Shown here piece by piece: positions 48,096 through 63,369 of a DNA stretch of 64,000 nucleotides. Both the position numbers and the translations under genes were made by a program. This DNA comes from an uncultured Chloroflexia bacterium (GTDB taxonomy: Bacteria > Chloroflexota > Limnocylindria > QHBO01). Within the stretch, counting starts at the first letter, position 1. Every line of letters begins with the position of its first letter. The notes under the pieces are model-generated. The model had not been told where the DNA came from. It saw nothing but the letters and a program-made list of their open reading frames with translations, and made no database searches. The DNA lies in contig CAWGTN010000002.1 of the NCBI GenBank assembly GCA_963825525.1, forward strand, positions 1,504,001-1,568,000, in the 5' to 3' direction.

Positions 48096-49559
48096 TCAGA
48101 ATAGGCTCGACGCGGACACCTCGATCAGCTCCAGGACCCCGCCGGGGAAGAGGCCAAGGATGACCACCCCCGCCACCGAGAGCGCCAGTGCCACGGTGCC
48201 GAAGGGTGAGGTGTCGATGGGGGCGGGGTCGTCCTCCGGATCCCGCATGTACATGTAGACGATGACGCGAAGGTAGTAGAACGCGGCCATCGCGGCATTC
48301 AGGACGAGGATCACGGCAAGCCAGGCCAGCCCCGCGTCGACCGCCGCCAGCAGCACGTACAGCTTGGCGAAGAACCCGACCGTGGGTGGGATGCCGGTGA
48401 GGCTGAGCATGAGCACGCCCATCGCAGCGGCACGGGCCGGCGACCGCGACCCGAGGCCGGCGAACGAGTTCAGGCCGCCGAACCGCCGCGTGTCTCGCTG
48501 CAGCATGCCCACCACCGCGAAGGCGGCGATGTTCATCACCGCGTAGCCGAGGACGTAGAACAGCACCGACTCGATGCCCTGCGCGGCGGTCTCCGGGTCG
48601 GAGGCGTTGGCGAAGGCGGCCAGGCCCACCATGATGTAGCCGGTGTGGGCGATGCTCGAGTACGCCAGCATCCGCTTCACGTTGACCTGGGTGAGCGCGA
48701 CGACGTTCCCTACCGTCATCGTGAGCACGGTGAGCACCAGGAAGACGCCGATCCAGTCGGCGCGCAGCGGTGCGAGCGCCTCCGCGAAGACACGGACCAG
48801 GAGGGCAAAGGCCCCGAGCTTCGGGCCCACCGACAGGAATCCGGTGATCGGCGTCGGAGCGCCCTGGTAGGCATCCGGCGTCCAGTAGTGGAACGGGACC
48901 GCCGCGATCTTGAACGTGCCGCCCACGATGAGGAATCCGATGGCGATGAGCAGTGCGCCGCTCATGCGTCCCTCGAGGCCCGATGCCGCGATCTCCGCGA
49001 TGTTGGTGGTGCCGGTGAGCCCGTAGAGCCAGCTGATGCCGAACAGCACGATGGCGCTCGCGAAGCTTCCGAGCAGGAAGTACTTCAGCCCGCCCTCGTT
49101 GCTGTAGCGGTCCGTCTTGTGGAGGCCGGTGAGCAGGTAGGACGGCATCGTCATCAACTCGAGGCCAAGGAACAGGGTGATCAGGTCGGAGCTCGACGCG
49201 AGCACGAACATACCGAGCAGCGCGCTGAGCAGGATCATGTGGAACTCGCCCAGCGGGATCCTGCGCACGAGGAGGTAGGAGGGCGCGAACAGCACCGAGA
49301 TGACGCCGATGACCACCGTCGCCGCCTTGAAGAAGACGGACAGGTCGTCCACCACGTAGAAGCCGGCGTAGACGGTCTCGTTGACATCCCACACCACGAA
49401 CAGCGCGGCACCGACGAGGACGAGACCGGCCACCGTGAGCGGAGTGAGGATCCACTTGTCGGCACGCGCCAGGAACAGGTCGACCGTGATCACCGTGAGG
49501 ATGAGGACCACGAGCAGCAGCTCCGGCATGAGCGTGACGAGGTCGTCGATGTACGTCAT
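48096..49559 (-). CDS. nuoN: NADH-quinone oxidoreductase subunit N
   Basis: EGGLKYFLLG, FKIAAVPFHYWTPDAYQGAP, KRMLAYSSIAH. Confidence 0.95.
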   Translation of the reverse strand: MTYIDDLVTLMPELLLVVLILTVITVDLFLARADKWILTPLTVAGLVLVGAALFVVWDVNETVYAGFYVVDDLSVFFKAATVVIGVISVLFAPSYLLVRRIPLGEFHMILLSALLGMFVLASSSDLITLFLGLELMTMPSYLLTGLHKTDRYSNEGGLKYFLLGSFASAIVLFGISWLYGLTGTTNIAEIAASGLEGRMSGALLIAIGFLIVGGTFKIAAVPFHYWTPDAYQGAPTPITGFLSVGPKLGAFALLVRVFAEALAPLRADWIGVFLVLTVLTMTVGNVVALTQVNVKRMLAYSSIAHTGYIMVGLAAFANASDPETAAQGIESVLFYVLGYAVMNIAAFAVVGMLQRDTRRFGGLNSFAGLGSRSPARAAAMGVLMLSLTGIPPTVGFFAKLYVLLAAVDAGLAWLAVILVLNAAMAAFYYLRVIVYMYMRDPEDDPAPIDTSPFGTVALALSVAGVVILGLFPGGVLELIEVSASSLF

Positions 49560-49569
49560 GCGCAGCTCC

Positions 49570-51096
49570 TCACCACAGCGGCCCGAATGCGGTCAGGCCG
49601 GCACCACGGACTGCATCGAGGATCCGGTCGACCGGTGCCGCGATCAACTCGAGGACCGGCCCCGGATACACCCCGAGGGCCACGACCAGGATGATGAGGG
49701 GCGCCAGCGCGATCCATTCATTGCGATTGATGTCGCGCAGCGCCGGCCACGACTGGCGCATCCAGTCGGACGGCACGGTGAAGAAGACGCGCTGGAACAT
49801 CCACAGCATGTACACCGCGCTGATGATGACGACGATCATGGTCGCCGCGGCGATGAATCCATTGGCACGGAACGCCCCGAGAATCACGAGGAACTCCCCG
49901 ACGAACCCGGAAAGCCCGGGGAGCCCGATGCTGGCGAAGGTGAAGAGGCCGAACATCGCGGCATAGCGCGGGATACGGGCGTTGAGCCCGCCCATGTGGG
50001 CGATGAGCCGGTCATGGGTCTGCTCGTACAGGATCCCGACCAGCATGAACAGCGCGCCGGTGGTGATGCCGTGGCTGATCATCTGGTAGATCGCACCCTG
50101 CAGGCCCTGCTCGTTGAAGACGAACGCGCCGAGCATCACGAAGCCCATGTGACTGACGCTCGAGTACGCGACCAGCTTCTTCAGATCGGGCTGGACCATG
50201 GCGACCAGGCCGCCGTAGATGATGGCGATGATGGCGAGGCCGATGATGATCGGCGCGAAGCTGACGGCCGCGTCGGGCAGGAGCGGCAGGCTGAAGCGCA
50301 GGAACCCGTAGCCGCCGAGCTTCAGCATGACGCCGGCCAGGATGATCGAGCCGGCGGTCGGGGCCTCGACGTGCGCGTCGGGCAGCCAGGTGTGGAACGG
50401 CCACATCGGCACCTTGATCGCGAACGCCAGGAAGAAGGCGACGAAGGCCAGTGCCTGGAGCGTATCGGCGTAGGCGAATCCGCGGAGCGCCTCGTAGCTG
50501 AAGGTGAAGGGCTGGCCGCTTGCCGCGTGGGCGATGGCCACGGCCAGGATGGCGACGAGCATGAGCAGCGAGCCGACCAGGGTGTAGAGCACGAACTTCA
50601 CGGTGGCGTAGATGCGCCGTGGCCCGCCCCACACCCCGATGATCACGTACATCGGGAAGAGGCTGATCTCCCAGAAGACGTAGAACAGGAACATGTCGAG
50701 CGCCATGAAGACCCCGAGCATCCCGACCATCAGGAGCAGGAGCGCGATGTAGTACTCCTTGACCCGCTTCTGGATCGGCTCCCAGGAGTAGAAGAGGGCG
50801 ACCACGCTGAGGACGGTGGTCAGCAGCACCAGGACGACCGAGAGACCGTCCACGCCCAGCGTGTAGCGCATGCCGAAGGCCTCGATCCAGGGCAGGTCCT
50901 CCCTGAACTGGAACTCGGATGCCGCCGAGGAGGCGTCGTAGCCGAGCAGCACGAGCGAGAAGGCGAGGCTGGCCAGCGCCGCCCCGAGCGCCACCCAGCG
51001 GATGGCTCGGTGATTGGAGCTCGGAATCAGGAGGAGCAGCAGGACGCCGACGACCGGCATGAAGATGATGAGTGAGAGCACCGGCAGGCCTGTCAT
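49570..51096 (-). CDS. nuoM: NADH-quinone oxidoreductase subunit M
   Basis: FYVFWE, IKVPMWPFHTWLPDAHVEAP, KKLVAYSSVSHMG. Confidence 0.95.
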   Translation of the reverse strand: MTGLPVLSLIIFMPVVGVLLLLLIPSSNHRAIRWVALGAALASLAFSLVLLGYDASSAASEFQFREDLPWIEAFGMRYTLGVDGLSVVLVLLTTVLSVVALFYSWEPIQKRVKEYYIALLLLMVGMLGVFMALDMFLFYVFWEISLFPMYVIIGVWGGPRRIYATVKFVLYTLVGSLLMLVAILAVAIAHAASGQPFTFSYEALRGFAYADTLQALAFVAFFLAFAIKVPMWPFHTWLPDAHVEAPTAGSIILAGVMLKLGGYGFLRFSLPLLPDAAVSFAPIIIGLAIIAIIYGGLVAMVQPDLKKLVAYSSVSHMGFVMLGAFVFNEQGLQGAIYQMISHGITTGALFMLVGILYEQTHDRLIAHMGGLNARIPRYAAMFGLFTFASIGLPGLSGFVGEFLVILGAFRANGFIAAATMIVVIISAVYMLWMFQRVFFTVPSDWMRQSWPALRDINRNEWIALAPLIILVVALGVYPGPVLELIAAPVDRILDAVRGAGLTAFGPLW

Positions 51097-53288
51097 CAGC
51101 GCACCACCACCGCCAGCGCAACGAGCACGAGCACCAGGCCGGCGGCGATCCCCAGGCCATAGTTCTCGACTCGACCGGTCTGGACCTTCCGGAGCCCGCC
51201 GCCCACGGTCCGGGCCAGCCAACCGGCTCCGTTCACCGCGCCGTCGATGATCTTCACGTCGAACCACCACAGGGCGTTGCTGAGCAGGACGCCGCCGCGC
51301 GCCCAGACCAGCCCGTAGAGATCATCCACGTAGTACTTGTTCACGCTGGCCCGATACATCCCGGGCCCGAGGCCGAACGGGATGCGCTCCACGAAGCGCA
51401 CGGCCGACTCTGGTCGCTGCACGTACCAGCGATAGGCGAGCAGCACGCCGCCCACCGCGACCGCCGCCCCGATCAGCAGCAGCAGACCGCCGAGGCCGAA
51501 GAGCTCGAAGCCATGGTGCTCGCCATCCGCGATGGAACCGGCGAGGACCCCGGCATGCGACTCCTCGGCGGCATGGAAGATCTCCTCGAGCCAGCCGTGG
51601 ATCACGCCGCCCTCCGGCGGGATGCCGAGAATGAGACCCGCCAGGATGGTGGGCACGGCCAGGATCGCCAGCGGCGCGACCATGGTCGGGGCGCTCTCGT
51701 GGATGTGGTCCCAGGCCGCCTTCGGCCCGCGCCACTCGCCCCAGAACGTCATGAAGATCATGCGGAACGTGTAGAAGGCGGTCATGAAGGCGACGATGGT
51801 GCCCACGAGATAGAAGACGAGGTACCCGCGGTTGAAGGCCTCGGCCAGGATCTCGTCCTTGCTGAAGAAGCCGGAAAAGATCGGGATGCCGGCCAGCGCC
51901 AGCGAGCCGATGACCATGGTGATATAGGTCCAGCGCATCTTCGCCCGCAGGTTGCCCATGTAGCGCATGTCCTGCTCGCCGCCCGCCCCGTGGATGACGG
52001 AGCCCGAGCCCATGAACAGCAGGCCCTTGAAGAAGCCGTGGCTGACGAGATGGAAGATGGCGGCCACCCATGCGCCGATGCCGAGCGCGAAGAACATGTA
52101 CGCCAGCTGGCTGACGGTCGAGTAGGCCAGCACCTTCTTGATGTCGTTCTGGGTCAGGGCGATCGCCGCGGCAAAGATGGCGGTGAAGACGCCGATGATG
52201 GCCACCGTCCACATCGCGACCGGCGCCTCGGCAAAGATCGGGTTGGCGCGGGCGACCAGGTAGACCCCGGCGTTGACCATGGTCGCCGCGTGGATCAGCG
52301 CGCTGACCGGGGTGGGGCCCTCCATCGCGTCCGGCAGCCAGACGTGGAGCGGGAACTGGGCGCTCTTGCCCACGGCGCCGGCGAAGAGGAGCAGCGCGAT
52401 GACCGTGATCGTGGTCTCGTCGAGTGTCCCGATCCGCTCGAAGACCTCGTGGAAGCTCAGCGTCCCCAGGTTGACCCAGATCATCATGATGCCGAGCCCG
52501 AACCCGAAGTCGCCGACCCGGTTGACGATGAACGCCTTCTTGGCGGCCCCGGCGGCGGAGGGCTTCTTGTACCAGAAGCCGATCAGCGCGTAGCTGCACA
52601 GGCCGACGGCCTCCCAGCCGACGTAGAGCATCAGGAAGTTGTCGCCAAGGATCAGCAGCAGCATGCTGAACATGAAGAGGTTGAGGTAGGCGAAGAACCG
52701 CCAGAAGCCGCGGTCGCCGTCCATGTAGCCGATGGAATAGATGTGGACCAGGAATCCGACCGTGCTGACGACGAGCAGGAGCATGGCCGTCAGTGAGTCC
52801 ACCAGGAACGCGATCTCGATGGTGAAGTCGCCCGAGGCGATCCACTCGTAGATCGAGACCTCGTACTCGTTGCCACCGAACACGACGCTGGCGAACACGA
52901 TCATCGAGAAGACCCACATCAGGCCCACGACCGCGGTCGGCACGACCCACGATCGGTAGCGCGGCCGCTCGGCTCCCGGGGCCACGTGGCCGGCCTGGCC
53001 CAGGCCGTCGCTCATGTCGGACGGGATCACGCCATCGGCGCCCTCGGCGTTCGCAAGGTCATCGGCATGGCCGGCATGCGGGCTGGTGGCGCGCTGCTCT
53101 TCCTCGCTCGGGACCGGACGGAACGCAGAATCGTCGACCGCGTGGTCGTCGTGCGTCCCGTGCTCGGCATCGGCGTGTGCGTCGCCATGGCCGTGGCTCG
53201 GAACGCGGTCCAGCCTGGCTCCGGCGAGCACGGCGAACAGGAACCCGACCAGGGGCAGCGCGGGGATGAGGGCGATCAACAGCTCCAC
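51096..53288 (-). CDS. nuoL: NADH-quinone oxidoreductase subunit L with a His/acid-rich insertion
   Basis: GWEAVG, GKSAQFPLHVWLPDAMEGPTPVSALIHAATMV, KKVLAYSTVSQL. Confidence 0.95.
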   Translation of the reverse strand: MELLIALIPALPLVGFLFAVLAGARLDRVPSHGHGDAHADAEHGTHDDHAVDDSAFRPVPSEEEQRATSPHAGHADDLANAEGADGVIPSDMSDGLGQAGHVAPGAERPRYRSWVVPTAVVGLMWVFSMIVFASVVFGGNEYEVSIYEWIASGDFTIEIAFLVDSLTAMLLLVVSTVGFLVHIYSIGYMDGDRGFWRFFAYLNLFMFSMLLLILGDNFLMLYVGWEAVGLCSYALIGFWYKKPSAAGAAKKAFIVNRVGDFGFGLGIMMIWVNLGTLSFHEVFERIGTLDETTITVIALLLFAGAVGKSAQFPLHVWLPDAMEGPTPVSALIHAATMVNAGVYLVARANPIFAEAPVAMWTVAIIGVFTAIFAAAIALTQNDIKKVLAYSTVSQLAYMFFALGIGAWVAAIFHLVSHGFFKGLLFMGSGSVIHGAGGEQDMRYMGNLRAKMRWTYITMVIGSLALAGIPIFSGFFSKDEILAEAFNRGYLVFYLVGTIVAFMTAFYTFRMIFMTFWGEWRGPKAAWDHIHESAPTMVAPLAILAVPTILAGLILGIPPEGGVIHGWLEEIFHAAEESHAGVLAGSIADGEHHGFELFGLGGLLLLIGAAVAVGGVLLAYRWYVQRPESAVRFVERIPFGLGPGMYRASVNKYYVDDLYGLVWARGGVLLSNALWWFDVKIIDGAVNGAGWLARTVGGGLRKVQTGRVENYGLGIAAGLVLVLVALAVVVR

Positions 53289-53298
53289 GGGTGTCTGC

Positions 53299-53604
53299 CT
53301 ACTCCTTCAGATCGGAGTACTGATCGACCTCGGCCGTCTGACGCGTCCGGATGATCGCAATCACCAACGCCAGGCCCACGGTCACCTCGGCTGCGGCGAC
53401 GGCCATGATCATGAGCGCGAAGACGGCGCCCGCATTCGAATCGGGTGGGAGGAAGGCGTTGAAGGCGACCAGGCTCAGGTTCACGGCGTTGAACATCAGC
53501 TCGATGCTGATGAGCATGAGGATCGCGTTGCGGCGGGCCATGAAGCCGAACGTCCCGATGCCGAACAGCATCACGGAGACGATGAGGTAGCCGGTGAGTC
53601 CCAT
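53299..53604 (-). CDS. nuoK: NADH-quinone oxidoreductase subunit K
   Basis: RRNAILMLISIELM, AVAAAEVTVGLA. Confidence 0.95.
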   Translation of the reverse strand: MGLTGYLIVSVMLFGIGTFGFMARRNAILMLISIELMFNAVNLSLVAFNAFLPPDSNAGAVFALMIMAVAAAEVTVGLALVIAIIRTRQTAEVDQYSDLKE

Positions 53605-53606
53605 GC

Positions 53607-54116
53607 TCAGTTGGCCCGCTCGTCTTCTTCGGGACGTCGCGCCAGGTAGATGGCGCCGATGATGGCCACCAGGATCAGGAGGCTGATGATCTCGAACGGC
53701 AGCGCAAAGGTGGTGAACACCGCGTTGGCGATGGCGTCAACGGCCGCGGCGACCGGCTGCGGCAGCACGGACCAATCCGTCTGCACGACCGCCCATCCCA
53801 CGACGCCAATGAGGCCGAGCGCCACGACGGCCGCGATCGGAACCTGGCGGTGGAACGGTGCCGGCAGGTTCGCATCGCCAGCCTGGGTCAGCATGATGGC
53901 AAACAGGATGAGCACGCTGATCGCGCCCAGGTAGATGAGGACCTGGGCTGCCGCCACGATGGGGGCGCCGAGCAGCGCATACATCCCGGCCAGTGAGCCG
54001 AAGCAGATCATCATTGCCACGGCCGAATGGATGATGTTGCGCAGCGTCACCACGGCAATGCCGGCTCCCACAACGCCGATGGCGAGCAGGAAGAACAGGA
54101 CGCTGGAGATATCCAG
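53607..54116 (-). CDS. nuoJ: NADH-quinone oxidoreductase subunit J (probable CTG start)
   Basis: QVLIYLGAISVLILFAIML, LPFEIISL; first TM lies upstream of the ORF-track start; AGGAG 9 nt before CTG; TAGAAT at 54178-54183. Confidence 0.92.
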   Translation of the reverse strand: MDISSVLFFLLAIGVVGAGIAVVTLRNIIHSAVAMMICFGSLAGMYALLGAPIVAAAQVLIYLGAISVLILFAIMLTQAGDANLPAPFHRQVPIAAVVALGLIGVVGWAVVQTDWSVLPQPVAAAVDAIANAVFTTFALPFEIISLLILVAIIGAIYLARRPEEDERAN

Positions 54117-54272
54117 GGTCGAATGCTCCTGAGAGAGGTTGAGCGCTCAAAACGGTCCCGCTCGGGGACCGCGCTCGATTCTAGCGCAGGCATTGCGTGG
54201 TCGCGCGCTGACCCCGTACCCTGCGCGGAACCGCCGACCCTGGCGGAGGAGTGGATGGAGGACGAGGTCACG

Positions 54273-54641
54273 ATGACGAGACGGACCGTTCCGGTACTCG
54301 CGGCGCTCGCGATCGCCCTGGCCGCATGCGGCGGCGGCGGCGGCGGAGGTGGCGCCAACGATGGCGCGGACAATCCGACCAAGGCCACGGTCGAGGCCGG
54401 TGCCGAGCGCGTTGCCTACCTGCTCGCCCCCGGACGGTACCGGATGACGATCAACGAGGACTGCGACGACTACACCATCGCGATCACCCAGGACGGCGGC
54501 GACTTCACGTACACCCTCGACAATTCGCCGATCCGTTTCGTCTTCGTGAACGACGTGCCGGCCGGCAGCTTCTTCATCGAGCAGACCAACGAGGCGTGCA
54601 CTGAGTGGAGCGTTGACCTCAGCAGAGTGAACGCCCCCTGA
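54273..54641 (+). CDS. hypothetical lipoprotein in opposite orientation inside the nuo cluster
   Basis: Lipobox LAAC, poly-Gly linker, beta-rich domain with two Cys; SD GAGG. Confidence 0.75.
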   Translation: MTRRTVPVLAALAIALAACGGGGGGGGANDGADNPTKATVEAGAERVAYLLAPGRYRMTINEDCDDYTIAITQDGGDFTYTLDNSPIRFVFVNDVPAGSFFIEQTNEACTEWSVDLSRVNAP

Positions 54642-54695
54642 TCCGACTCGGTGGTCACGCGGATGGCCCCTGAGCCGAAGATGGAACGAATTGGT

Positions 54696-54726
54696 GCGTC
54701 CGGCACGCCACACGAGTGCCGGACGC
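54696..54726. terminator. 11-bp hairpin between convergent genes
   Basis: GCGTCCGGCAC-N9-GTGCCGGACGC. Confidence 0.55.
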
Positions 54727-54739
54727 TTCCCACGTCGGT

Positions 54740-57136
54740 CTAGCGGGTGGGGCGCTCCCGGTCGGACATCTCGAGAATGTCGAGCATCGGCAGGTCGCGC
54801 TGGTACTCGCTGAACTCGAACTCGGGGCCGCATCGCAGCGCGTCGTACGGACAGGCATCGGCGCAGATGCCACAGAAGATGCAGCGGCTGATATCGAGCT
54901 GGTAGGTCTCGAGGATGCGCGGGCGCGGCATGAGCGCGCCGACCGGGCAGGTCTCCGCGCATCGGCCACAGGAGACGCACGGCGTCTCGTTGAGTGACAC
55001 GAAGTCGGCGGTGGTGACCAGCGAGTCGAAGCCCTTGCCGATGAAGTCGTAGCAGCCGGCGCCCACGATCTCCTTGCAGACCTGGGCGCAGCGGCCGCAG
55101 TCGATGCAGCGGCTGTAGTCGCGCAGGATGAACGAATGCGTCTCGTCCCGGCCGTAGCCGTGGTTCACGCCGACGTACGGGTTGTCCTGGATCGAGCGCT
55201 CGTCGATCGCCATGTTCAGCGTCGTCTCGTACTCGATGGCCGCCTCGCGCAGGTCGCAGTGCCCGATCGCCTCGCAGGTGCACTGAAGGCATCGGCCCGC
55301 CTCGGCCATGGCCTGGTCGCCGGTGTAGCCGAACTCGTACTCGTTGAAGTTCGTGCGGCGCTCGTCGGCCTCCTGCTTGCCCATGATGGCGCGTGGTTCC
55401 TTCACGTCGTCGGTGAAGGGCACGATGGTCAGGAAGTTCGGCTGCGGCTCGGTGACGATGCGGCGCACCTGCGGGTCGTCGAGGTCATGGCCGCGCAGCC
55501 AGTAGTCCATGGCGTAGCTGGCGCGGCGTCCCTCGCCGATCGCCTCGACCACGGTGGCGGCGCCGGTCCGAACGTCGCCGGAGGCGAAGATCTTCGGGAC
55601 ATTGGTGCGGAAGATGTGCTCCTCGGCGACCAACGTGCCGCGGCGCGAGACCTCGAGGCCGGCCCGAATCTCCTCCGGCTCGGACTCGATCCATGACAGC
55701 TCGGGTCCCTGGCCGATGGCGCCGAGGACGGTGTCGCACTCGACGATGAACTCGGTGCCGGGCATCGGCTCGGGCCGACGGCGGCCCTGCGCATCGGGCT
55801 CGCCCAGCTTCATGCGCTGGAACTCGACGCCGTTCACCTTGTCATCGGCGCCGGTCACGATCCGCGTCGGTGCGGCCTGGAAGATGACGCGCGCGCCCTC
55901 CTCGATCGCCTCGTGCACCTCGTCGGCGGCGGGCATGTCCTTGAGGTCGCGGCGATAGACGAGCGTGACCTCCGCCGCGCCCTGCCGGACGCTGGTCCGG
56001 GTGCAGTCGATGGCGGTGAAGCCGCCGCCGATGACCACGACCCTCGCATTCTTCAGGCGCGGGACGGGGACGCCGCGGGTCGAGTTGTAGAGGTTCTCGA
56101 GGGCGTTGACCGTCCCATCGGCCTCTTCGCCCGGGATGCCGAGCTCGTTCGGCTTGTAGCAGCCGATGCCGACGTAGATGGCGTCGTAGTCGTCGATGAT
56201 GTCGCCCAGGTGGAAGTCACGACCGAGGCGCATGTTCGGCTTGAAGGTCGCGCCCAGCTCCCACACGTGGTTGAGCTCGCGGTCCATCCAGCCCTTGGGC
56301 AGCCGGTACTGGGGGATGCCGTAGCGCAGCATGCCGCCCTGCTCCGGGTCGGCCTCGTAGACGTCGCACTGATGGCCGCGCAGCTGGAGGTAATAGGCCG
56401 CGGTCATGCCGGCCGGTCCGGCGCCGATGATCGCCACCTTGCGACCGGTGGGCGGATCCTTCGGCCACGGAATCGGGGCAGGGGCGTCCACTTCGAGCAC
56501 CCGGTCGGCGCAGTAGCGATGCGAGTCACGGATGGCGATGGCCGTGTCGACTTCCTCACGGCGGCAGTGCGTCTCGCACGGAGCGGGACACACGCGGCCG
56601 AGGATGGCGGGGAAGGGAAGGGAGCGCTTGAGGATGCGCGTCGCCTCTTCCCAGTTGCCCAGGGTGTTCTGCTTCAGGTAGCCCGGGATATCGACGCGGG
56701 TGGGGCACTTGAACTGGCACGGGGGAAGGCAGTAGGCGTCGTGGTCGCTGAAGATGAGCTCGAGGACCATGCGACGGTTCTCGATGACCCGCTCGGAGTG
56801 GGTGGTGATGACCATCCCCTCCTCGATGGTCGTTCCGCAGCTGATGGGTGTGTCGTCGCGACCCTCGACCTCGACCGCGCAGATGCGGCAGGCGCCGTAC
56901 GGCGCGAGCTTGGGCTCGTAGCACAGGGTCGGGACGTCGATCCCCAGCACGCGACAGGCCTGGAGGATGGTCTGTCCCTCCTCGACCTGGAGCTCCTTGC
57001 CGTTGATGGTGACGCCGATCTCGCGCGTCCCGGGCACCATCGGCCAGATCGGGGTGTAATCGGCACTCGGGCCGTCACCCGCGCTGCCGTTGCCTGCCCC
57101 GTGGCCGTTCGTTCCGTTCGTCGTTCCGAAGCCCAT
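54740..57136 (-). CDS. NuoG N-terminal FeS module + GltD-like FAD/NADPH oxidoreductase + C-terminal half of NuoI
   Basis: PTLC..GACRIC..SC (2Fe-2S); PCQFKCP, GRVCPAPCETHC, GAGPAG, GGGFTA, YRR, GD (GltD); CIDCGRCAQVC and CVSCGRCAETCP; then YQLDISRCIFCGICADACP..EFEFSEY. Confidence 0.88.
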   Translation of the reverse strand: MGFGTTNGTNGHGAGNGSAGDGPSADYTPIWPMVPGTREIGVTINGKELQVEEGQTILQACRVLGIDVPTLCYEPKLAPYGACRICAVEVEGRDDTPISCGTTIEEGMVITTHSERVIENRRMVLELIFSDHDAYCLPPCQFKCPTRVDIPGYLKQNTLGNWEEATRILKRSLPFPAILGRVCPAPCETHCRREEVDTAIAIRDSHRYCADRVLEVDAPAPIPWPKDPPTGRKVAIIGAGPAGMTAAYYLQLRGHQCDVYEADPEQGGMLRYGIPQYRLPKGWMDRELNHVWELGATFKPNMRLGRDFHLGDIIDDYDAIYVGIGCYKPNELGIPGEEADGTVNALENLYNSTRGVPVPRLKNARVVVIGGGFTAIDCTRTSVRQGAAEVTLVYRRDLKDMPAADEVHEAIEEGARVIFQAAPTRIVTGADDKVNGVEFQRMKLGEPDAQGRRRPEPMPGTEFIVECDTVLGAIGQGPELSWIESEPEEIRAGLEVSRRGTLVAEEHIFRTNVPKIFASGDVRTGAATVVEAIGEGRRASYAMDYWLRGHDLDDPQVRRIVTEPQPNFLTIVPFTDDVKEPRAIMGKQEADERRTNFNEYEFGYTGDQAMAEAGRCLQCTCEAIGHCDLREAAIEYETTLNMAIDERSIQDNPYVGVNHGYGRDETHSFILRDYSRCIDCGRCAQVCKEIVGAGCYDFIGKGFDSLVTTADFVSLNETPCVSCGRCAETCPVGALMPRPRILETYQLDISRCIFCGICADACPYDALRCGPEFEFSEYQRDLPMLDILEMSDRERPTR

Positions 57137-57156
57137 CGTGTCCTATCGTAGCGAGG

Positions 57157-58521
57157 CTAAGCGCCCGCCGCCGGATCGACTCCGGCAAGAGGCTCGAGAA
57201 GAGGGTGGACGCCGTCGGTGCGGCAGGCGCCGGCCAGGCATTCGCCGCGTTCCGCGTGCGCCCGGTACTCATCGGTGAATCGATCGAGGGTGGTGAGGAT
57301 CGGTCCCGATGCGAGCCGCTCCAGCTTGCAGAGCGCCGTGTCGCTCACCTTGCGCGACAGCTCGCGCAGGAGGTTGAAGTCGTTCGGCCGCGGCGTGGCT
57401 GCGAGGATGCGATCCATGGTCTCGACCAGGCGCTTCGTGCCGATCCGGCACGGGACCGCCTTGCCGCATGCCTCCCGCGCGTTGAAGTCGATGAAGAATC
57501 GGGCGGTGTCGACCATGCAGGTGGCGCTGTCGGTGACGAGCACCGATCCGGAGCCGATGATGGCGCCCGCTTCCTCGAGCGACTCGTAGTCGAACGGCAT
57601 GTTGAGCGAGCCGGCGTCGATGGCCCCACCACCCGGACCGCCGACAAACAGCGCCTTGGTGGTGCCGGTCCCGCCGCCCGCCATTCCGAGCAGGTCGATG
57701 AGCGGTGTTCCCAGCGGCACCTCGACGAGGCCCGGGGTGCCGACGCGGCCCATGATCGTGACGAGCTTGGTGCCGTGGCTGCCTTCGCTCCCAACCGACG
57801 CGAACGCATCCGGCGAGTGGGCCATGATCCATGCCACATGCGCCAGCGTCTCGCCGTTCTGGACGACGGTCGGGGCGCCGTTCAGCCCCTTCTGGGCCGG
57901 GTACGGTGGCCTGATGAGCGGCATGCCGCGGTCGCCGGAGAGGGCGTTGATGAGCGCCGTCTCCTCGCCCGCCACGTAGGCGCCGGAGCCCTCCCACACG
58001 CTGAGCTGGACGCTGGTGTCCGTGCCCAGCACGAGGTAGCCACCCAGGTGCGCATCGGTCGCCTCCGCGATGGCGGCTTGAAGGCGCTCGATGGCGACGG
58101 TCCAGTCACGCCGCACGGCGATGATCGCCTCGCTGGCGCCGGCCGCATACGCCGCAATGACGAGTCCCTCGACGATCAGATGTGGGTTGCCCTCGGCCAG
58201 GGCGCGGTCGCCGAGTGCGCTGGGATCTGCCGCCATGAGGTTGGCGACCACCACCCTGCGATCTCCCGGGGCATCACGCGCGACCCGCCACTTCGCCGCG
58301 GTCGGGAACCCCGATCCGCCGCGACCGCGAAGTCCCGCCGCCTCGATGTCACGAATGACCTCCTCGGGCGCCAGCTTGGTGATGGCGCGCTCGAGTCCGG
58401 CGTACCCGCCGTGCTCGCGGTAGCTCGCGAGGCTGCCCGGGTCAACACGGCCGATGTCGGTCAGGAGACGCGGCTCTCCCTCGGTGAGGATCCGGATCTG
58501 TGGCGAGAGGGTGCCGGTCAT
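57157..58521 (-). CDS. nuoF: NuoF-like subunit with degenerate NADH/FMN and N3 motifs
   Basis: GLRGRGGSGFPT..KW, GAYVAGEETAL, PPYPA; canonical NADExEPG reads NLMAADPS; CGKCxPC reads CGKAVPC. Confidence 0.85.
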   Translation of the reverse strand: MTGTLSPQIRILTEGEPRLLTDIGRVDPGSLASYREHGGYAGLERAITKLAPEEVIRDIEAAGLRGRGGSGFPTAAKWRVARDAPGDRRVVVANLMAADPSALGDRALAEGNPHLIVEGLVIAAYAAGASEAIIAVRRDWTVAIERLQAAIAEATDAHLGGYLVLGTDTSVQLSVWEGSGAYVAGEETALINALSGDRGMPLIRPPYPAQKGLNGAPTVVQNGETLAHVAWIMAHSPDAFASVGSEGSHGTKLVTIMGRVGTPGLVEVPLGTPLIDLLGMAGGGTGTTKALFVGGPGGGAIDAGSLNMPFDYESLEEAGAIIGSGSVLVTDSATCMVDTARFFIDFNAREACGKAVPCRIGTKRLVETMDRILAATPRPNDFNLLRELSRKVSDTALCKLERLASGPILTTLDRFTDEYRAHAERGECLAGACRTDGVHPLLEPLAGVDPAAGA

Positions 58522-59354
58522 GCTCGGTCACGACCCCCGGCCGGCGCGGCCGCCCGGCGCTCACCGACGATGTGCAGGGCCTTCTCTTCGTCGAGCGGGC
58601 CGTACACGAGGGTATCGATCCGCATGGCCGGGCTCAGCGCCCCGGCGCCGACGTCGGGTCGTGTCTCGAGCGAGAACCGGCCGTCTGCCGTCGTCTCGCC
58701 GGGCCGGATGCCGAGCTCCCGTTCGATCGCCGAGAGCAGGCGATCGCCGCCGGCGAACCGACAGGAGGCGCAGTCGCACACCGTCACCAGGTGGCCACTG
58801 GCCGGCAGCAGGCGGAATCCACCGAGTCCGGCGGCACCGAAGACCTGGGCCCAATGGATCGTCATTCGGTCGCTGATCCGGCGCAGTGCCCGCTCCGGGA
58901 GATAGCCATATCGCTCCTCGATGGCGCGGAAGATGGCAACCAGCGCCTCGGGGCGTCCGCCGAACCCGTCAATGACCTGGTCCACGAACGGCGTGTCGAT
59001 CGCCTCGTCCCAGCGCGCCGCGTTTCGCATCGGTTTGGCCTCCAGACCGGCACGTCGATAGGCGTTGGGATCCTTGCGCTCGTCATAGATCTCCGGCATG
59101 CCGTAGCGGATCCGGTTGCCGGTCGAGTCGAACCCGCTCATGTCGATGGCCTCGACCGGACAGACCTGGGCGCACTGGAAGCACACCTCGCACTTGTGCT
59201 CCCCGAACGGGTCGTAGATCAGGTCGAGACGGCCGCGCCAGCGATCGGGGATCTCGGGGCGCTGCTCCGGATACTGCCGCGTCACCTTCGGCGCGAAGAA
59301 GTTCCGCAGGGTCGTCGCCATGCCCTTCGCGATGCCGGAGCCGGGAAATGCCAT
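58518..59354 (-). CDS. fusion: N-terminal half of NuoI + degenerate NuoE domain
   Basis: GIAKGMATTLRNFF..VTRQYPE..RWRG..CEVCFQCAQVCP (single motif); then IEERYGYLP, TVCDCASC, GETTADGRFSLE, DVGAGALSP. Confidence 0.88.
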   Translation of the reverse strand: MAFPGSGIAKGMATTLRNFFAPKVTRQYPEQRPEIPDRWRGRLDLIYDPFGEHKCEVCFQCAQVCPVEAIDMSGFDSTGNRIRYGMPEIYDERKDPNAYRRAGLEAKPMRNAARWDEAIDTPFVDQVIDGFGGRPEALVAIFRAIEERYGYLPERALRRISDRMTIHWAQVFGAAGLGGFRLLPASGHLVTVCDCASCRFAGGDRLLSAIERELGIRPGETTADGRFSLETRPDVGAGALSPAMRIDTLVYGPLDEEKALHIVGERRAAAPAGGRDRA

Positions 59355-59366
59355 GGGTTCGCCCTC

Positions 59367-60377
59367 CTACAGGTCGAAGACGACCACGGCGATGGCCGTG
59401 ATGAACAGGTTGACGAGGGCGAGAGGCAACAGGACCTTCCACGCCATGCCCATGAGCTGATCCACGCGCATGCGGGGCAGGGTGGCGCGCAGCCAGACCG
59501 CGATGGACACGAAGATGTAGGTCTTGAGGAAGAACCAGAAGATGCCATAGAGGGTGCCGCCGAATCCATCGAGCTGTGCCGGGAACGGCCAGGGCGCCAG
59601 CCAGCCGCCGAAGAAGAGGCTGACCAGGATGCCGCTCATGATGAACAGCGCGACGTACTCGGCGAAGAAGAAGAACCCGAAGCGCATCCCCGAGTACTCG
59701 GTGAAGGGGCCGGCCACCAGCTCCGAGTCTGCCTCGACCATATCGAACGGGGTCCGGTTCACCTCCGCCAATGAGCTGATGTAGAAGATGCCGAGGCCGA
59801 CCGGTTGCCACACCAGGAGCCAGCCATGGTCCCGCTGCCAGGCGATGAGCTCGCTGAAGTTCAGCGTGCCGGCCAGGACCACCGCCCCCACGATCGAGAG
59901 GGTGAGCGGAATCTCGTAGCTCACCATCTGGGCCGCCGCGCGCAGCCCGCCGAGGAGCGAGTACTTGTTGTAGCTCGCCCAGCCGGCCACGAGGAGCCCC
60001 ACAACCGAGAGGCCGAGCACCGCGAAGAAGTAGACGATGCCGATGTTGAAGTCGGCGGCGACGGCACCCGGCGCGAACGGGATCACGAGCATGCTCATCG
60101 CCGCGGCCATGTAGACCATCCACGGCGCGAGGGTGAACGTCCCGCGGTCCGCCTGGTCGGGCACCGTGTCCTCCTTGGCGAGGACCTTGAACCCGTGGAT
60201 CGTGCTCTGGAAGATGCCGCGCGGACCGATGCGGTTCGGTCCGAAGCGCAGGTTCATCTGGGCGATGATCTTCATCTCCATCTGGATGATGACGAACGCC
60301 GTCGGAACGGTGAGCAGCAGCAGCAGCGTCGTCGCCAGGATGAATCGGCCGAGGCCGAGAAGCAGCTCGAAGTCCAT
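59367..60377 (-). CDS. nuoH: NADH-quinone oxidoreductase subunit H
   Basis: GPNRIGP, KYSLLGGLRAAAQMVSYE, AEVNRTPFD, EYSG. Confidence 0.96.
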   Translation of the reverse strand: MDFELLLGLGRFILATTLLLLLTVPTAFVIIQMEMKIIAQMNLRFGPNRIGPRGIFQSTIHGFKVLAKEDTVPDQADRGTFTLAPWMVYMAAAMSMLVIPFAPGAVAADFNIGIVYFFAVLGLSVVGLLVAGWASYNKYSLLGGLRAAAQMVSYEIPLTLSIVGAVVLAGTLNFSELIAWQRDHGWLLVWQPVGLGIFYISSLAEVNRTPFDMVEADSELVAGPFTEYSGMRFGFFFFAEYVALFIMSGILVSLFFGGWLAPWPFPAQLDGFGGTLYGIFWFFLKTYIFVSIAVWLRATLPRMRVDQLMGMAWKVLLPLALVNLFITAIAVVVFDL

Positions 60378-60380
60378 CGG

Positions 60381-61664
60381 CTACTTGTCCACGCCGCCCA
60401 TGACCGGGTCGAGGCTGGCCATCACCGCCATGGTGTCGGCGACCAGCCGGCCCGGCATGAGCTTCGGCAGTGCCTGGAGGCTGATGAAGCTGGGATCGCG
60501 CATCCGGAAGCGGTACGGGTTCGGGCCTCCGTCGCTGATGGCATAGACGCTGTACAGGCCGCGTGGCGACTCGACCGCGCCGTACGCGCGGCCCGGCCGT
60601 GGACGGATGATGCCGGGGACCTGGGCCTGCACCGCCCCGTGGGGCATCTTGTCGATGATCTGGTCGATGAGGTGGATGCTCTGCTTGATCTCGGCGATGC
60701 GCTGCAGGTAGCGGGAGTAGGAATCTCCGCCCTCCTGGGTGATGACGTCGAACTCGAGCTCGTTGTAGATCGAGTAGGGCTTCGCCTTGCGGACATCGAA
60801 GGGGACGCCGGATGCTCGCAGGTTCGGACCGGTGACGCCGAGACTGATGGCCTCCTGGCCGGTGAGCGTGCCCATGTTGATCGTCCGTGCTCGGAAGATC
60901 TCGTTCTCGGTGATCATGTGCTCGTTCATCTCGATGTTCTTCATGACGTTGCCGCGCCACGTGCCGAGACGGCTGAGGAACTCGTCGTTGGTGTCGAAGT
61001 TCACGCCACCCACGCGGAAGAAGTTGAAGAGCATGCGCTGGCCGCTGATGGCCGACAGCATGTCGACGATCTCGTCGCGATTGATGAACGCGTAAAGGAT
61101 CGGGGTGATGCCGCCCATGTCGAGCGCCAGGAAGCCCATCATCAGCCCGTGGCTGAAGATGCGATTCAGCTCCACGACCAGTGCGCGGATGTACTCGGCG
61201 CGCGGCGGTGCCTTGATGCCGTACAGCTTCTCGAACGCGATGGCCGGTGCATGCTCGTTGTGCATGGTCGACAGGTAGTCCATGGGGTCCACGTAGGTGA
61301 GAACGGTGGTGTACGTCGCGTTCTCGCACAGCTTCTCGATGCCGCGATGGAGGTAGCCAAGGACGGGGTCGATGTCGACGATGATCTCGCCGCGAACCTT
61401 GACCACCAGCCGCATCACGCCGTGGGTCGACGGGTGCTGCGGCCCCATGTTCACGAGCATCTCCCCCTCGTCCAGGGTGTAGACCTCGCGCTCCCGTTCC
61501 GTCTGGGGTGGTCGATCCGGGATCCCGACCTGGTCGAAGCCCGCGTACTCGCCCGCACTCGTTCGGACCGGCGTCAGGCCGGCGACCGCGCGGAGGCGTT
61601 CCTCTTCGAGCCGATCCAGCTCGATCGGGTCGGGGATTCGCGTCTCCGGATCCACGCTCGTCAT
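60381..61664 (-). CDS. nuoD: NADH-quinone oxidoreductase subunit D
   Basis: NMGPQHPSTHGVMR, GYLHRGIEK, ELNRI, ESPRG. Confidence 0.96.
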   Translation of the reverse strand: MTSVDPETRIPDPIELDRLEEERLRAVAGLTPVRTSAGEYAGFDQVGIPDRPPQTEREREVYTLDEGEMLVNMGPQHPSTHGVMRLVVKVRGEIIVDIDPVLGYLHRGIEKLCENATYTTVLTYVDPMDYLSTMHNEHAPAIAFEKLYGIKAPPRAEYIRALVVELNRIFSHGLMMGFLALDMGGITPILYAFINRDEIVDMLSAISGQRMLFNFFRVGGVNFDTNDEFLSRLGTWRGNVMKNIEMNEHMITENEIFRARTINMGTLTGQEAISLGVTGPNLRASGVPFDVRKAKPYSIYNELEFDVITQEGGDSYSRYLQRIAEIKQSIHLIDQIIDKMPHGAVQAQVPGIIRPRPGRAYGAVESPRGLYSVYAISDGGPNPYRFRMRDPSFISLQALPKLMPGRLVADTMAVMASLDPVMGGVDK

Positions 61665-62254
61665 CGCGCGCCGCTCCCGTTGGAATCCGTTGGCGCTTCC
61701 GTCGCGCCCGGCGTGTCGCGGTAGCGGGAGAGGTCCCAGGTCGCGGGCCGCTCGAGCGGGTTCACGCCAGCGGCGGGAGAGTCGGCCGCGTCATCCGGCA
61801 GAAGAAAGTCACGACGCTGCGGAAAGGAGCGGTAGTCGGGGCTCATGTAGATGCGCCGAAGGTCGCGATTGCCGTCGAAGATGATGCCCATCATGTCGTA
61901 CATCTCGCGCTCGTGGAACATCGCCCCCTCCCACAGGTCGGTGATGGTGGGGATGCGCGGATCATCGCGGTCCACGTCGGCACGGATGCGGAGCCAGCCG
62001 GGATGCTTCCAGCTGAACAGGTGGTACACCACCTCGAAGCGCTCCCCGAGTCCGTAGTCGACCGCCGCGGCGTCGGCAAGCATGAAGAAGTCGAGATCGT
62101 CATCGTCGCGCAGGGTCTTGAGGACGTCATGGGCACGGGGCGCACTGACCCGGTACTCGACGGTGTCCTCGTCGGTCCACAGGTCGCGAAGGTCGTCACC
62201 GAGACGCTCGGCCAGCGCCCGGACGAGCGCGCCGGCCGCGGCGGACGTGGTCAG
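61661..62254 (-). CDS. nuoC: NADH-quinone oxidoreductase subunit C (probable CTG start)
   Basis: [29 protein letters not shown]; CTG overlaps the nuoB TGA, with AAGGAG upstream. Confidence 0.92.
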
Positions 62255-62910
62255 CGGACGTCTCCTTCCCAGTTGGTTCGCTGCGGGCCTCGATCCACGT
62301 ACGTGCTCCACTGGCCTCGGCGCTGCTTGACCAGCTCGTGCAGCTTCATCATTCCGTAGATCAGGCCCTCGGGGCGCGGTGGGCAGCCCGGCACGTACAC
62401 GTCGACCGGCATGACCCGATCCACGCCCTGGACCACGCTGTACGAACGCTTGAAACGGCCACCGGATGTCGTGCAGGTGCCCATGGCCACGCACCACTTG
62501 GGCTCGGGCATCTGCTCCCACAGCCGGACGAGCGGCCCGGCCATCTTCGTGGTCAGCGTGCCGGCCACGATCAACACGTCCGCCTGCCGTGGGCTGGCGC
62601 GGAACGGGAACATCCCGAATCGGTCGATGTCGTTCACGCTCGTGGCCGTGCTCATCATCTCGATGGCGCAGCAGCTGAGCCCCGACAGCAACGGCCAGAG
62701 CGAGTTGGCTCGAATGAGGTCGAGGATGTAGTCGGCCTTGGTCGGGATGACCTCGAGCAGGCCGTGGAATCCGCCCTGCGGATGCTCCTCCATCCCGAAC
62801 TCGCGCAGCAGGTCGCTGTCCGCGGCCTGGTCGGGAATGACGATCGGTCCGTTGCCGGGGGTCGACATCAGTTCGGTCGAGCTCCCGGTTGTTGGTCGGT
62901 CTACTGCCAT
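62251..62910 (-). CDS. nuoB: NADH-quinone oxidoreductase subunit B
   Basis: [32 protein letters not shown]. Confidence 0.96.
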
Positions 62911-63260
62911 CGCAGGTCCCCCTTCTTCCACGCGTACAGCTCACCGAACATGAGGATGGCCAGGAAGATGCCGATCAGGACGATCCCCTGGAACTCGAGC
63001 GACCGCACGGTGATCGCCCACAGGTATACGAAGATGATCTCCACGTCGAAGGCCACGAACAGCAGGGCGTATAGGTAAAAGGCAAGTCCGAATCGGCTCC
63101 AGGTGTCGCCGATCGTGTCCACCCCGGACTCGTACGGCAGGCCCTTCTGGGGACGCCGGCGCCGATGGGTGATCAGCCAGCTGAACAGGATCGTGCCGAA
63201 GACGAAGGTCGTCGCGGCAAACGCGAATCCGATGACGTAGAGCAGTCCGGTGTGATCCAT
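62901..63260 (-). CDS. nuoA: NADH-quinone oxidoreductase subunit A
   Basis: [29 protein letters not shown]. Confidence 0.95.
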
Positions 63261-63369
63261 CTCCACTCCGGTTGCACGCGGTGCAGTTGCGTGTCGGGCA
63301 GCGGCCCGACGCTGAGGTTCGTCGTTGGTGGAGCGGTGCGGCGCTGCGTGCACGGCCCGCTCGTTTCAC

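Follow-up and report, generated by a model that had tools for sequence, protein, structure and literature searches.

A Limnocylindria complex I variant with NuoI split by a three-gene GltD-type cassette that probably admits electrons from NADPH

INTRODUCTION

Complex I is usually viewed as an NADH enzyme whose core subunits are each made as one polypeptide. Here, a nuo operon is described in which a core iron-sulfur subunit, NuoI, is cut in two and forms the joint for a foreign flavoprotein module. The operon lies in a 64,000-nucleotide stretch of an uncultured Chloroflexia bacterium (Chloroflexota; Limnocylindria; QHBO01; GenBank assembly GCA_963825525.1, contig CAWGTN010000002.1, positions 1,504,001 to 1,568,000). 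This whole stretch is referred to below as the window and its source as the window genome (G000).

The closest solved relatives of the module are the soluble Stn/NfnABC enzymes (8oh5, 9n5u, and 9bov). According to the Stn study, NADPH reduces the flavin adenine dinucleotide (FAD) of the GltD domain, and electrons then follow the StnC clusters to the flavin mononucleotide (FMN) of StnB. Clusters C1 and C2 lead into an inactive FdhF-like domain, termed a non-functional branch, and this domain is needed for Stn assembly (PMC10482914).

Canonical 14-subunit complex I of Thermus (Nqo1-15) and Escherichia coli shares with the window the eleven Q- and P-module subunits, the NuoE, NuoF, and NuoG folds, and, with both halves combined, the NuoI cluster motifs. 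In cyanobacterial NDH-1 and archaeal Fpo, NuoI is whole and ferredoxin or FpoF docks, whereas the input module of the window is covalently joined to both NuoI halves. These 11-subunit relatives combine an A-B-C-D-H-I-J-K-L-M-N core with a lineage-specific electron-input device (PMC3144371). Schut et al. (2022) predicted a Nuo-Bfu complex, a proton-pumping complex I linked to menaquinone in which NuoEFG gives way to a Bfu-type module; its 14 subunits (A-N) are encoded in one cluster, described from Deferribacteres, Proteobacteria, Planctomycetes, and Nitrospirae, and it would use NADH and ferredoxin (PMC9304861). The available account of Nuo-Bfu in that survey mentions neither a GltD domain nor a split NuoI, both of which are features of the window, and the survey required a ferredoxin-type domain in BfuB, which the window protein lacks. 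In the mbx-like operons described by Degli Esposti (2015), a GltD-like protein replaces NuoI, which is a different arrangement (PMC4758237). The fusions named in the available part of a 2025 complex I survey preprint are only C/D and B/C/D (10.1101/2025.03.13.643058), and a further candidate paper (PMC5736913) proved unrelated. Full-text literature searches, which did not reach subscription-only papers, returned no description of a complex I with split NuoI and GltD, and the locus is a real, conserved, and apparently undescribed variant.

RESULTS AND DISCUSSION

The nuoI gene is divided by a three-gene cassette

Analysis of the window by Pfam and NCBIfam profile searches revealed a single minus-strand nuo operon of 13 genes (48096-63353), with nuoA first and nuoN last. 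The order is nuoA-B-C-D-H, a three-gene cassette (P0003-P0001-P0002), a 668-bp spacer, and nuoJ-K-L-M-N. All eleven core subunits of the Q- and P-modules (A, B, C, D, H, I, J, K, L, M, and N) are encoded together, NuoI as two halves. The cassette contains the following features.

58518..59354, minus strand: P0003 (278 amino acids), NuoI front half plus NuoE-like domain
59100..59354, minus strand: NuoI front half, the N-terminal part of P0003, with the first CxxCxxCxxxCP motif (Cys55/58/61/65); TIGR01971 positions 1-72 of 121, E 5e-15
58518..59099, minus strand: linker and NuoE/BfuC-like thioredoxin-fold domain of P0003; PF01257, E 3e-25
57157..58521, minus strand: P0001 (454 amino acids), NuoF/BfuB-like core; PF01512, PF10589, and SLBB
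54740..57136, minus strand: P0002 (798 amino acids), NuoG/GltD protein plus NuoI back half
56795..57025, minus strand: NuoG-type [2Fe-2S] domain of P0002 (Cys72/83/86/100); PF13510, E 4e-20
55292..56728, minus strand: GltD/NfnB-like insert of P0002 with two [4Fe-4S] sites, FAD and NAD(P)H Rossmann domains, and linker; PF14691 and PF07992
54920..55291, minus strand: remainder of the His-ligated cluster motif of P0002 (Cys616-627) and two-[4Fe-4S] ferredoxin-like domain (Cys677-687 and Cys720-730); PF22117 and PF12838
54740..54919, minus strand: NuoI back half, the C terminus of P0002 including the stop codon, with the second CxxCxxCxxxCP motif (Cys752/755/758/762) and the NuoI tail; TIGR01971 positions 71-112, E 5e-15

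The NuoI profile TIGR01971 is divided between the two edges of the cassette. Its positions 1-72 match residues 11-83 of P0003, and positions 71-112 match residues 740-781 of P0002. Each half reaches 55 bits against a cut-off of 113, and neither is a one-polypeptide NuoI. Residues 8-76 of P0003 also align with NuoI/TYKY chains of solved complex I (E 3e-11). Combined, the halves hold both CxxCxxCxxxCP motifs with all eight cysteines, which are invariant among the close orthologues; the front-half cysteines Cys55/58/61/65 are 100% conserved in 67 sequences. The close-orthologue sets, window included, comprised 68 NuoF-like, 65 NuoG-like, and 67 P0003-type sequences. No separate nuoI was found by these profile searches between nuoH and nuoJ or elsewhere in the window operon. 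With NuoI sequence on the cassette edges and no other nuoI found, the gene order is that of an 11-subunit A-B-C-D-H-I-J-K-L-M-N operon carrying a putative electron-input cassette within nuoI, the front half being fused to the NuoE-like protein and the back half to the NuoG/GltD protein.

In the two-cluster ferredoxin fold, each cluster is bound by three cysteines of one motif and one of the other. Each NuoI [4Fe-4S] cluster therefore needs cysteines from both halves, so that P0002 and P0003 should pair and share both clusters. Such pairing would bolt the electron-input module onto the Q-module. When residues 655-798 of P0002 were co-folded with residues 1-112 of P0003, the score was 0.45 (median of three runs), compared to 0.00 for the best of 3 controls. 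The runs shared at least 77% of contacts, and the partner predicted local distance difference test value was at least 64. In calibration, 116 of the 157 solved complexes passed the mark, as did 2 of the 215 mismatched pairs; those passing with scores of 0.60 or lower included only 18 of the 157 solved complexes, yet both of the passing mismatches. Since solved NuoI structures exist, the pass may reflect only likeness to them, and it is taken as weak support for the pairing.

P0002 carries a complete GltD module inside the His-ligated cluster motif

The GltD module of P0002 (Fer4_20 and Pyr_redox_2, residues 137-550) sits between His132-x3-Cys136 and the Cys616-Cys627 group. A first-pass annotation of this DNA had placed a complete GltD module at this point of a NuoG-like protein with no molybdopterin-type domain. 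Both observations hold: the Pfam search detected no molybdopterin-type domain in P0002, and the module has the full GltD/NfnB-type motif set, with two N-terminal [4Fe-4S] sites within Cys140-191, an FAD GxGxxG motif at residues 238-243, and a second dinucleotide motif at residues 370-375, followed by Tyr394-Arg395-Arg396. An arginine pair after the second dinucleotide motif presumably marks NADPH specificity.

Comparison with family models placed P0002 far from canonical NuoG (TIGR01973, 103.5 bits, cut-off 470); against NF009454, it obtained 547 bits (cut-off 916; E 6e-164). Residues 39-762 align in one piece to residues 3-699 of 9bov_A and 3-700 of 8oh5_C and to 9n5u_A (E 7e-168 to 3e-139), with canonical NuoG chains far lower, and the GltD part matches the solved chains 4ylf_B and 5jca_L (E 5e-88 and 2e-78). 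P0002 thus has the architecture of an NfnA/StnC large subunit, namely a NuoG-type 2Fe-2S domain, a GltD insert in the His-ligated motif, and a two-cluster ferredoxin-like domain. The C-terminal FdhF-like domain is absent; P0002 ends at residue 798 with NuoI sequence, compared to 963-1178 residues in the solved chains. Across the 65 sequences, no substitution occurs at any cluster cysteine (including Cys72/83/86/100 of the NuoG-type [2Fe-2S] domain), at His132, in the FAD motif or the second dinucleotide motif, or at Tyr394-Arg395-Arg396. Mean conservation is 0.993 in the GltD cluster domain (residues 137-225), 0.991 in residues 616-738, and 0.98 in the NuoI back half.

The NuoF-like and NuoE-like proteins are reduced

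P0001 obtained 344 bits against the canonical NuoF model TIGR01959, below the cut-off of 558.65. Its best solved matches were 9bov_B, 8oh5_B (Stn), and 9n5u_B (NfnB) (E 9e-126 to 1e-119), followed by HydB chains, while canonical NuoF chains reached E 7e-84 or weaker. Since P0001 aligns only to residues 104-524 of the 584 residues of 8oh5_B, it has neither the 2Fe-2S domain at the N terminus nor the two-cluster domain at the C terminus that bifurcating BfuB carries. Across the BfuB-type chains, it spans only residues 104-526, without the extra clusters of a Bfu-family BfuB, and the Pfam search revealed no ferredoxin or thioredoxin-like domain. The first-pass annotation had listed an absent C-terminal ferredoxin domain, altered acidic and Asn-Asn loops, an N3 site one cysteine short, and a retained C-terminal H-x5-C-x4-C motif. 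Each of these was found again, the loops at residues 94-106 and 219-225 of the translation, the N3 site as Cys352-x2-Ala355-x2-Cys358 plus Cys398, and the C-terminal motif as His422-x5-Cys428-x4-Cys433. The protein retains its Gly-rich and Gly-Glu-Glu loops and three N3 cysteines. Tyr182 is kept in only 74% of the close orthologues.

Residues 116-263 of P0003 align best, among solved structures, to NfnC, HydC, and StnA (E 6e-23). Its NuoE-like domain keeps the first cysteine pair and has lost the second, which is absent in the window and in practically all of the 67 orthologues, so that the domain has neither the four cysteines of NuoE nor those of a BfuC with its 2Fe-2S cluster. This loss, the split of nuoI, and the finding of no separate nuoI in the operon go beyond the first-pass annotation. 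With mean conservation of 0.80 (NuoE-like domain, 67 sequences) and 0.814 (P0001, 68 sequences), these are the least conserved parts of the module.

The cassette resembles Stn/NfnABC and differs from described complexes

The annotated likeness to an NfnABC module is borne out by these alignments to Stn/NfnABC chains (E 9e-126 for the NuoF-like protein and 7e-168 for the GltD protein). Stn/NfnABC and the cassette agree in having three subunits, in the families of these subunits, and in gene order. GltD is inserted at the identical point of the NuoG-like N terminus, and the FAD and NADPH motifs and cluster ligands align with those of P0002. In contrast to Stn/NfnABC, the cassette NuoF-like protein lacks the N-terminal 2Fe-2S domain, the C-terminal two-cluster domain, and one N3 cysteine, the NuoE-like protein lacks two of four cysteines, the NuoI back half replaces the FdhF-like domain, and the NuoI front half is added to NuoE. 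Since the cassette lies within a nuo operon, its product, unlike Stn/NfnABC, presumably resides at the membrane and does not bifurcate electrons.

Compared to canonical complex I, NuoI of the window is on two polypeptides and the order is D-H-[I/E]-F-[G/I]-J instead of D-E-F-G-H-I-J; NuoG has a flavoprotein and no molybdopterin-like domain, and NuoF falls below its family cut-off. The operon also differs from Nuo-Bfu, which has 14 separate subunits and a complete BfuABC, in having 13 genes, a split and fused NuoI, and a trimmed BfuB.

The GltD-to-NuoI chain is constant, and NuoE and NuoF erode differently

The ratio of nonsynonymous to synonymous substitution rates (dN/dS; pairwise Nei-Gojobori, 69 orthologues) was 0.165 for P0003, 0.127 for P0002, and 0.124-0.281 for the other nuo genes, with P0001 similar to nuoA, nuoL, and nuoN. 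The same motif residues occur in 68 of 68 NuoF-like and 65 of 65 NuoG-like orthologues and are not due to chance.

A more distant set comprised 15 loci of families f2 and f4 (f1 denotes the family of the window), in which the GltD protein has 46-57% identity. In 14 of these loci, no ligand or motif of the GltD protein is lost; the exception is L190, in which its frame breaks near the end. Both NuoI halves are likewise retained across the three families (f1, f2, and f4). Losses in NuoE and NuoF differ between families. The middle N3 cysteine is missing in f1 and f4, with Thr at that position in f4; f2 NuoF keeps four N3 cysteines, has lost both Asn of the FMN loop, and is accompanied by a NuoE-like domain without both cysteine pairs. 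The His-Cys-Cys motif is absent from f4 NuoF, and one f4 genome (L186) additionally lacks the Gly-rich loop.

Erosion of NuoF was measured as identity to the complete NuoF of a metagenome contig (L086, described below) in seven cofactor windows (76 columns) and in the rest of the protein.

Four other Limnocylindria NuoF-family genes: cofactor windows 0.72-0.86, rest 0.37-0.55
Window and five close orthologues (family not assigned): cofactor windows 0.59-0.63, rest 0.42-0.48
f2 NuoF: cofactor windows 0.58-0.63, rest 0.32-0.36
f4 NuoF: cofactor windows 0.37-0.53, rest 0.35-0.36

The corresponding values of the GltD protein were 0.65-0.70 in all groups, with no family-specific drop. Independent and differing NuoE and NuoF losses beside an intact GltD-to-NuoI chain indicate that the constant electron path would start at the FAD.

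Three f4 loci (L186, L193, and L199) from genomes of about 1.1-1.2 Mb retain the whole split-NuoI operon together with the most eroded NuoF-like proteins; in L186, identity was equal in the cofactor windows (0.37) and the rest (0.36). In a few related loci of metagenome-assembled genomes (L036:7720-9918, L009:8642-12385, and L011:7771-9120), the NuoE-like and NuoF-like or the NuoF-like and GltD frames merge or break, which in long-read assemblies looks like assembly indels. These rows were excluded from alignment A3; the close-orthologue open reading frame (ORF) sets of 68, 65, and 67 sequences were not filtered for them.

Distribution of the split-NuoI operon

A scan of one genome per species revealed relatives of P0002 in 241 stretches, of which the best 80 were kept. 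Nearly all of these 80 are labelled Candidatus Limnocylindria, Chloroflexota, or Chloroflexia, and six have other labels. The cassette and operon order is the same in 80 of the 80 kept loci, as far as each contig extends; the gap before nuoJ ranges from about 0.1 to 7.6 kb.

In a class-wide sample that included the window genome, a NuoF-family match was present in 59 of 61 genomes. Most f1 genomes have one such match of about 300-340 bits; G003 and G021 have lower, partial matches, and G018, G033, and G045 have a weaker second match. Only the window genome has, within f1, a further NuoF match of a more canonical type. NuoH was matched in 22 of 26 f1 genomes, the four others being 55-81% complete. 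Eighteen have a single match (a count that rests partly on the three unpublished genomes G424, G430, and G436), the one gene of G003 is spread over two frames, a second but weak match occurs in each of G036 and G428, and the window genome has two strong matches. For most f1 genomes searched, no complex I other than the split-NuoI one was found.

The window genome has a second nuo operon of canonical type, which lies outside the window at about 3000-18000 of contig C2 and has the order A-B-C-D-E-F-G-H-I-J-K-L-M-N. Its nuoB, nuoD, and nuoF matches are spread over two to four frames, with nuoF positions 2-113 and 114-410 in different frames. No canonical-type NuoF like that of this operon was found in the other f1 genomes searched. 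Decay of a redundant copy, misassembly, or a foreign origin of the DNA could each explain this operon.

Searching 1.84 billion representatives with P0003 gave eight full-length matches among the top 150, from 81% down to 29% identity. A metagenome scan, run with a three-sequence alignment, revealed contig L086 (12.9 kb), which encodes nuoA-B-C-D-H, a fusion of NuoI front half and NuoE, NuoF, the GltD protein, and then nuoJ-K-L-M. The NuoE part has all four cysteines, and the GltD protein (825 amino acids) ends with the NuoI back half. The NuoF protein (640 amino acids) has canonical motifs and, like BfuB, N-terminal thioredoxin-like and C-terminal ferredoxin domains. Given this complete Bfu-type NuoF, the window form is best read as a probable reduced derivative of a complete Bfu-type insert. 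Complete relatives of this type would couple NADH, NADPH, ferredoxin, and quinone in one membrane complex. A phylum-wide search with P0147 gave full-length matches only in four Limnocylindria genomes (G000, G036, G048, and G023), which is no sign of absence elsewhere, as the query was distant and the threshold excluded many Limnocylindria. Among the remaining matches listed, only the NuoE-like part was covered, apart from three somewhat longer ones without stop codons.

In metagenome contig L087 (19-7991), an operon for 2-oxoacid:ferredoxin oxidoreductase (gamma, delta, and alpha), grouped here with the Por-Bfu type clusters of Schut et al. (2022), is followed by the same cassette with half-ferredoxins at its edges. 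Its NuoE-like protein has a half-ferredoxin N terminus that matches NuoI positions 33-64 only, and a full BfuB comes next. The half-ferredoxin at the C terminus of its GltD protein corresponds to NuoI positions 69-115 and continues into the PorB thiamine-diphosphate domain. L087 thus differs from the window in its host enzyme, in a back half that runs into PorB, and in a front half without the first approximately 32 profile positions of NuoI. This arrangement suggests that the cassette moved between host enzymes carrying NuoI remnants.

The f2 loci (L189, also L185, L187-L192, and L194-L198) have the order nuoB-nuoD-[NuoI front/NuoE-like]-NuoF-like-GltD protein, followed by an ORF of 162 amino acids and a Methyltransf_28 gene. 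A flotillin-like gene lies upstream, and no nuoH, nuoJ, nuoK, or nuoL was found in the fetched 10 kb. We take Methyltransf_28 (PF02636) to be the family of the complex I assembly factor NDUFAF7.

Metatranscriptome contigs from four runs of four studies cover the GltD gene and the NuoI front half; such libraries can contain DNA. The contigs are mostly 90-95% alike and are therefore from relatives. They cover the NuoF gene thinly, which is uninformative, as depth cannot rank genes.

Electron entry through the GltD domain and alternative readings

The preferred reading is that the operon encodes a complex I with NADPH entry at the GltD-domain FAD, in which NuoE and NuoF are mainly scaffold and the input cassette, derived from an Stn/NfnABC-type transhydrogenase, was placed inside nuoI of an 11-subunit-type operon. 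We assign it a probability of roughly 55%. NADPH would be oxidized at the FAD, and electrons would travel within P0002 along both GltD clusters, the His-ligated cluster, and the pair of ferredoxin-like clusters before reaching the NuoI clusters, N2 in NuoB, and finally menaquinone, with proton pumping. The dead-end branch of Stn would thereby have become the exit to NuoI, N2, and quinone. The exit to NuoI would likely proceed via the second ferredoxin-like cluster rather than the His-ligated one, unlike in canonical complex I. The NuoE-like and NuoF-like proteins would be reduced remnants of the bifurcating core, and the 2Fe-2S cluster, N3, and FMN would form a side arm. With potentials of -320 mV for NADPH and -74 mV for menaquinone (PMC9304861, Table 1), the forward reaction would be as favourable as with NADH.

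The first-pass annotation had proposed that electrons enter from NADPH through FAD and bypass a vestigial NuoF. Entry at the FAD is the route best supported by the invariant GltD-to-NuoI ligands and the family-specific erosion of NuoE and NuoF, and the proton pump probably runs on NADPH. The vestigial state of NuoF was not borne out in the window genome, where its altered motifs are fixed. A pseudogene or relaxed selection at NuoF in this genome is ruled out by the dN/dS of 0.20.

Several observations weigh against the NADPH reading. The dN/dS of P0001 (0.199) indicates purifying selection in the range of other nuo genes, and Ala355, Asn94, Asp99, Gly185-Glu187, and Arg204-Pro206 are each 100% conserved (n=68), so that the altered motifs are fixed and not drifting. 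On our assumption of which positions of canonical NuoF contact FMN and NADH, most are kept or conservatively changed, and a Cys-x2-Ala-x2-Cys...Cys site could still hold a [3Fe-4S] cluster. A sole NuoH gene was found in 19 of the 22 f1 genomes with a match, which would favour keeping NADH oxidation. The NADPH preference of P0002 is read from motif likeness to NADPH-using relatives only, and the assignment of Stn cluster names to motifs of P0002 is our own.

These points lend some weight to an enzyme with two inlets, in which the NuoF-like protein binds FMN and oxidizes NADH via the remodelled three-cysteine N3, possibly as [3Fe-4S], and GltD handles NADPH. Such an enzyme would reduce quinone with either NADH or NADPH and could also move electrons from one pool to the other. 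It would account for the purifying selection on NuoF, for the Gly-rich loop, Gly-Glu-Glu loop, Arg-Pro-Pro segment, and three N3 cysteines being 100% conserved in 68 sequences, and for cofactor windows that are more conserved than the rest by a ratio of 1.2-1.5 in the window and five close orthologues. The sole complex I in most f1 genomes searched, the retained [2Fe-2S] domain linking to NuoF, and the four N3 cysteines of f2 agree with it as well. In contrast, an acidic-loop residue and one FMN-site Asn are replaced (both Asn in f2), one f4 genome lost the Gly-rich loop with its GltD protein intact, Tyr182 is kept unevenly, and conservation within the module is lowest in NuoE and NuoF. Furthermore, the window genome encodes NDH-2 (C2:606252-607703, E 1e-46 to solved NDH-2 chains) and PntB (C2:1909973-1911328, 601 bits), so that NADH can reach the quinone pool or become NADPH without the split-NuoI complex. 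Taken together, two working inlets appear unlikely, though worth serious consideration.

A reverse mode, which the first-pass annotation had offered as its alternative, would use the same wiring, with proton-motive force pushing menaquinol electrons to NADP+ and giving NADPH for biosynthesis. Complex I is reversible. GltD/Nfn-type sites reduce NADP+ in Stn/Nfn, as reported for these enzymes (PMC10482914). PntB already provides a route to NADPH driven by proton-motive force, a forward respiratory role seems needed, since most f1 genomes searched yielded no other complex I, and no evidence was met for a high-potential lithotrophic donor feeding the quinone pool; the reverse mode is thus improbable. 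A soluble Nfn/Stn-like transhydrogenase merely located in the nuo operon, to which the soluble nature of the closest solved relatives would point, is highly improbable given NuoI sequence on both edges, including its N-terminal segment and C-terminal tail, no other nuoI found in the operon, the same order in the 80 related loci as far as contigs extend, and the missing bifurcation-specific domains and FdhF-like domain, the latter needed for Stn assembly.

Returning to NADPH entry at the FAD, a broader and more tentative proposal, to which we give somewhat less than even odds, is that most Limnocylindria, which are abundant in soil and freshwater, rely for respiration on one complex I only, a proton-pumping NADPH:menaquinone oxidoreductase. 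It would have arisen from a complete Nfn/Stn cassette inserted in nuoI, with NuoE and NuoF later becoming scaffold, and split NuoI would be a portable docking adaptor also carried into the 2-oxoacid:ferredoxin oxidoreductase operon. If the complex is NADPH-driven, it would provide a direct proton-pumping NADPH:quinone route, and models of energy and redox metabolism would need revision for a whole class of Chloroflexota that are common in soil and freshwater. The locus is a clear natural example of input-module swapping onto a proton pump, and the lineage-specific erosion of NuoE and NuoF represents a natural experiment on dispensable N-module parts.

Remaining genes of the operon and its surroundings

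The window has a G+C content of about 68%. The other features of the operon are as follows.

62901..63353, minus strand: nuoA; NCBIfam NuoA models, E 3e-20
62251..62931, minus strand: nuoB (carrier of cluster N2); TIGR01957, E 5e-66, above cut-off
61661..62250, minus strand: nuoC; PF00329, E 4e-36 at amino acids 266-383 of a long ORF; TIGR01961
60381..61664, minus strand: nuoD; PF00346, E 2e-83
59367..60377, minus strand: nuoH; PF00146, E 1e-109
54072..54739: spacer of 668 bp between the GltD gene and nuoJ, without family match
53607..54071, minus strand: nuoJ; PF00499, E 6e-34
53299..53604, minus strand: nuoK; PF00420, E 2e-25
51096..53288, minus strand: nuoL; NF005141, E 4e-216, above cut-off
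49570..51270, minus strand: nuoM; PF00361, E 1e-75
48096..49559, minus strand: nuoN; PF00361, E 1e-72

The ORF of nuoC was listed as extending to 62944; since the family match begins near residue 238, the true start is probably just after nuoB. A nuoI hidden in the 668-bp spacer was ruled out, as the spacer and the ORFs overlapping it have no family match. Most of the length of the spacer is conserved (72-84% DNA identity) only in the 16 nearest relatives, and in other relatives the match is limited to the first approximately 120 bases. Of its translated frames, the one with the highest conservation (about 54369-54632) runs against the operon on the plus strand, inside an ORF at 54027-54641, and has no family match.

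Directly downstream of nuoN, a family-20 glycosyltransferase gene (PF00982, E 1e-102) is located on the minus strand at 46586-48091; we take this family to be that of trehalose-6-phosphate synthase. A paralogue of the GltD part of P0002 is encoded elsewhere in the window genome, outside nuo context (C2:1641599-1643425; 33% identity over residues 136-748), and is possibly a soluble GltD/ferredoxin-type oxidoreductase.

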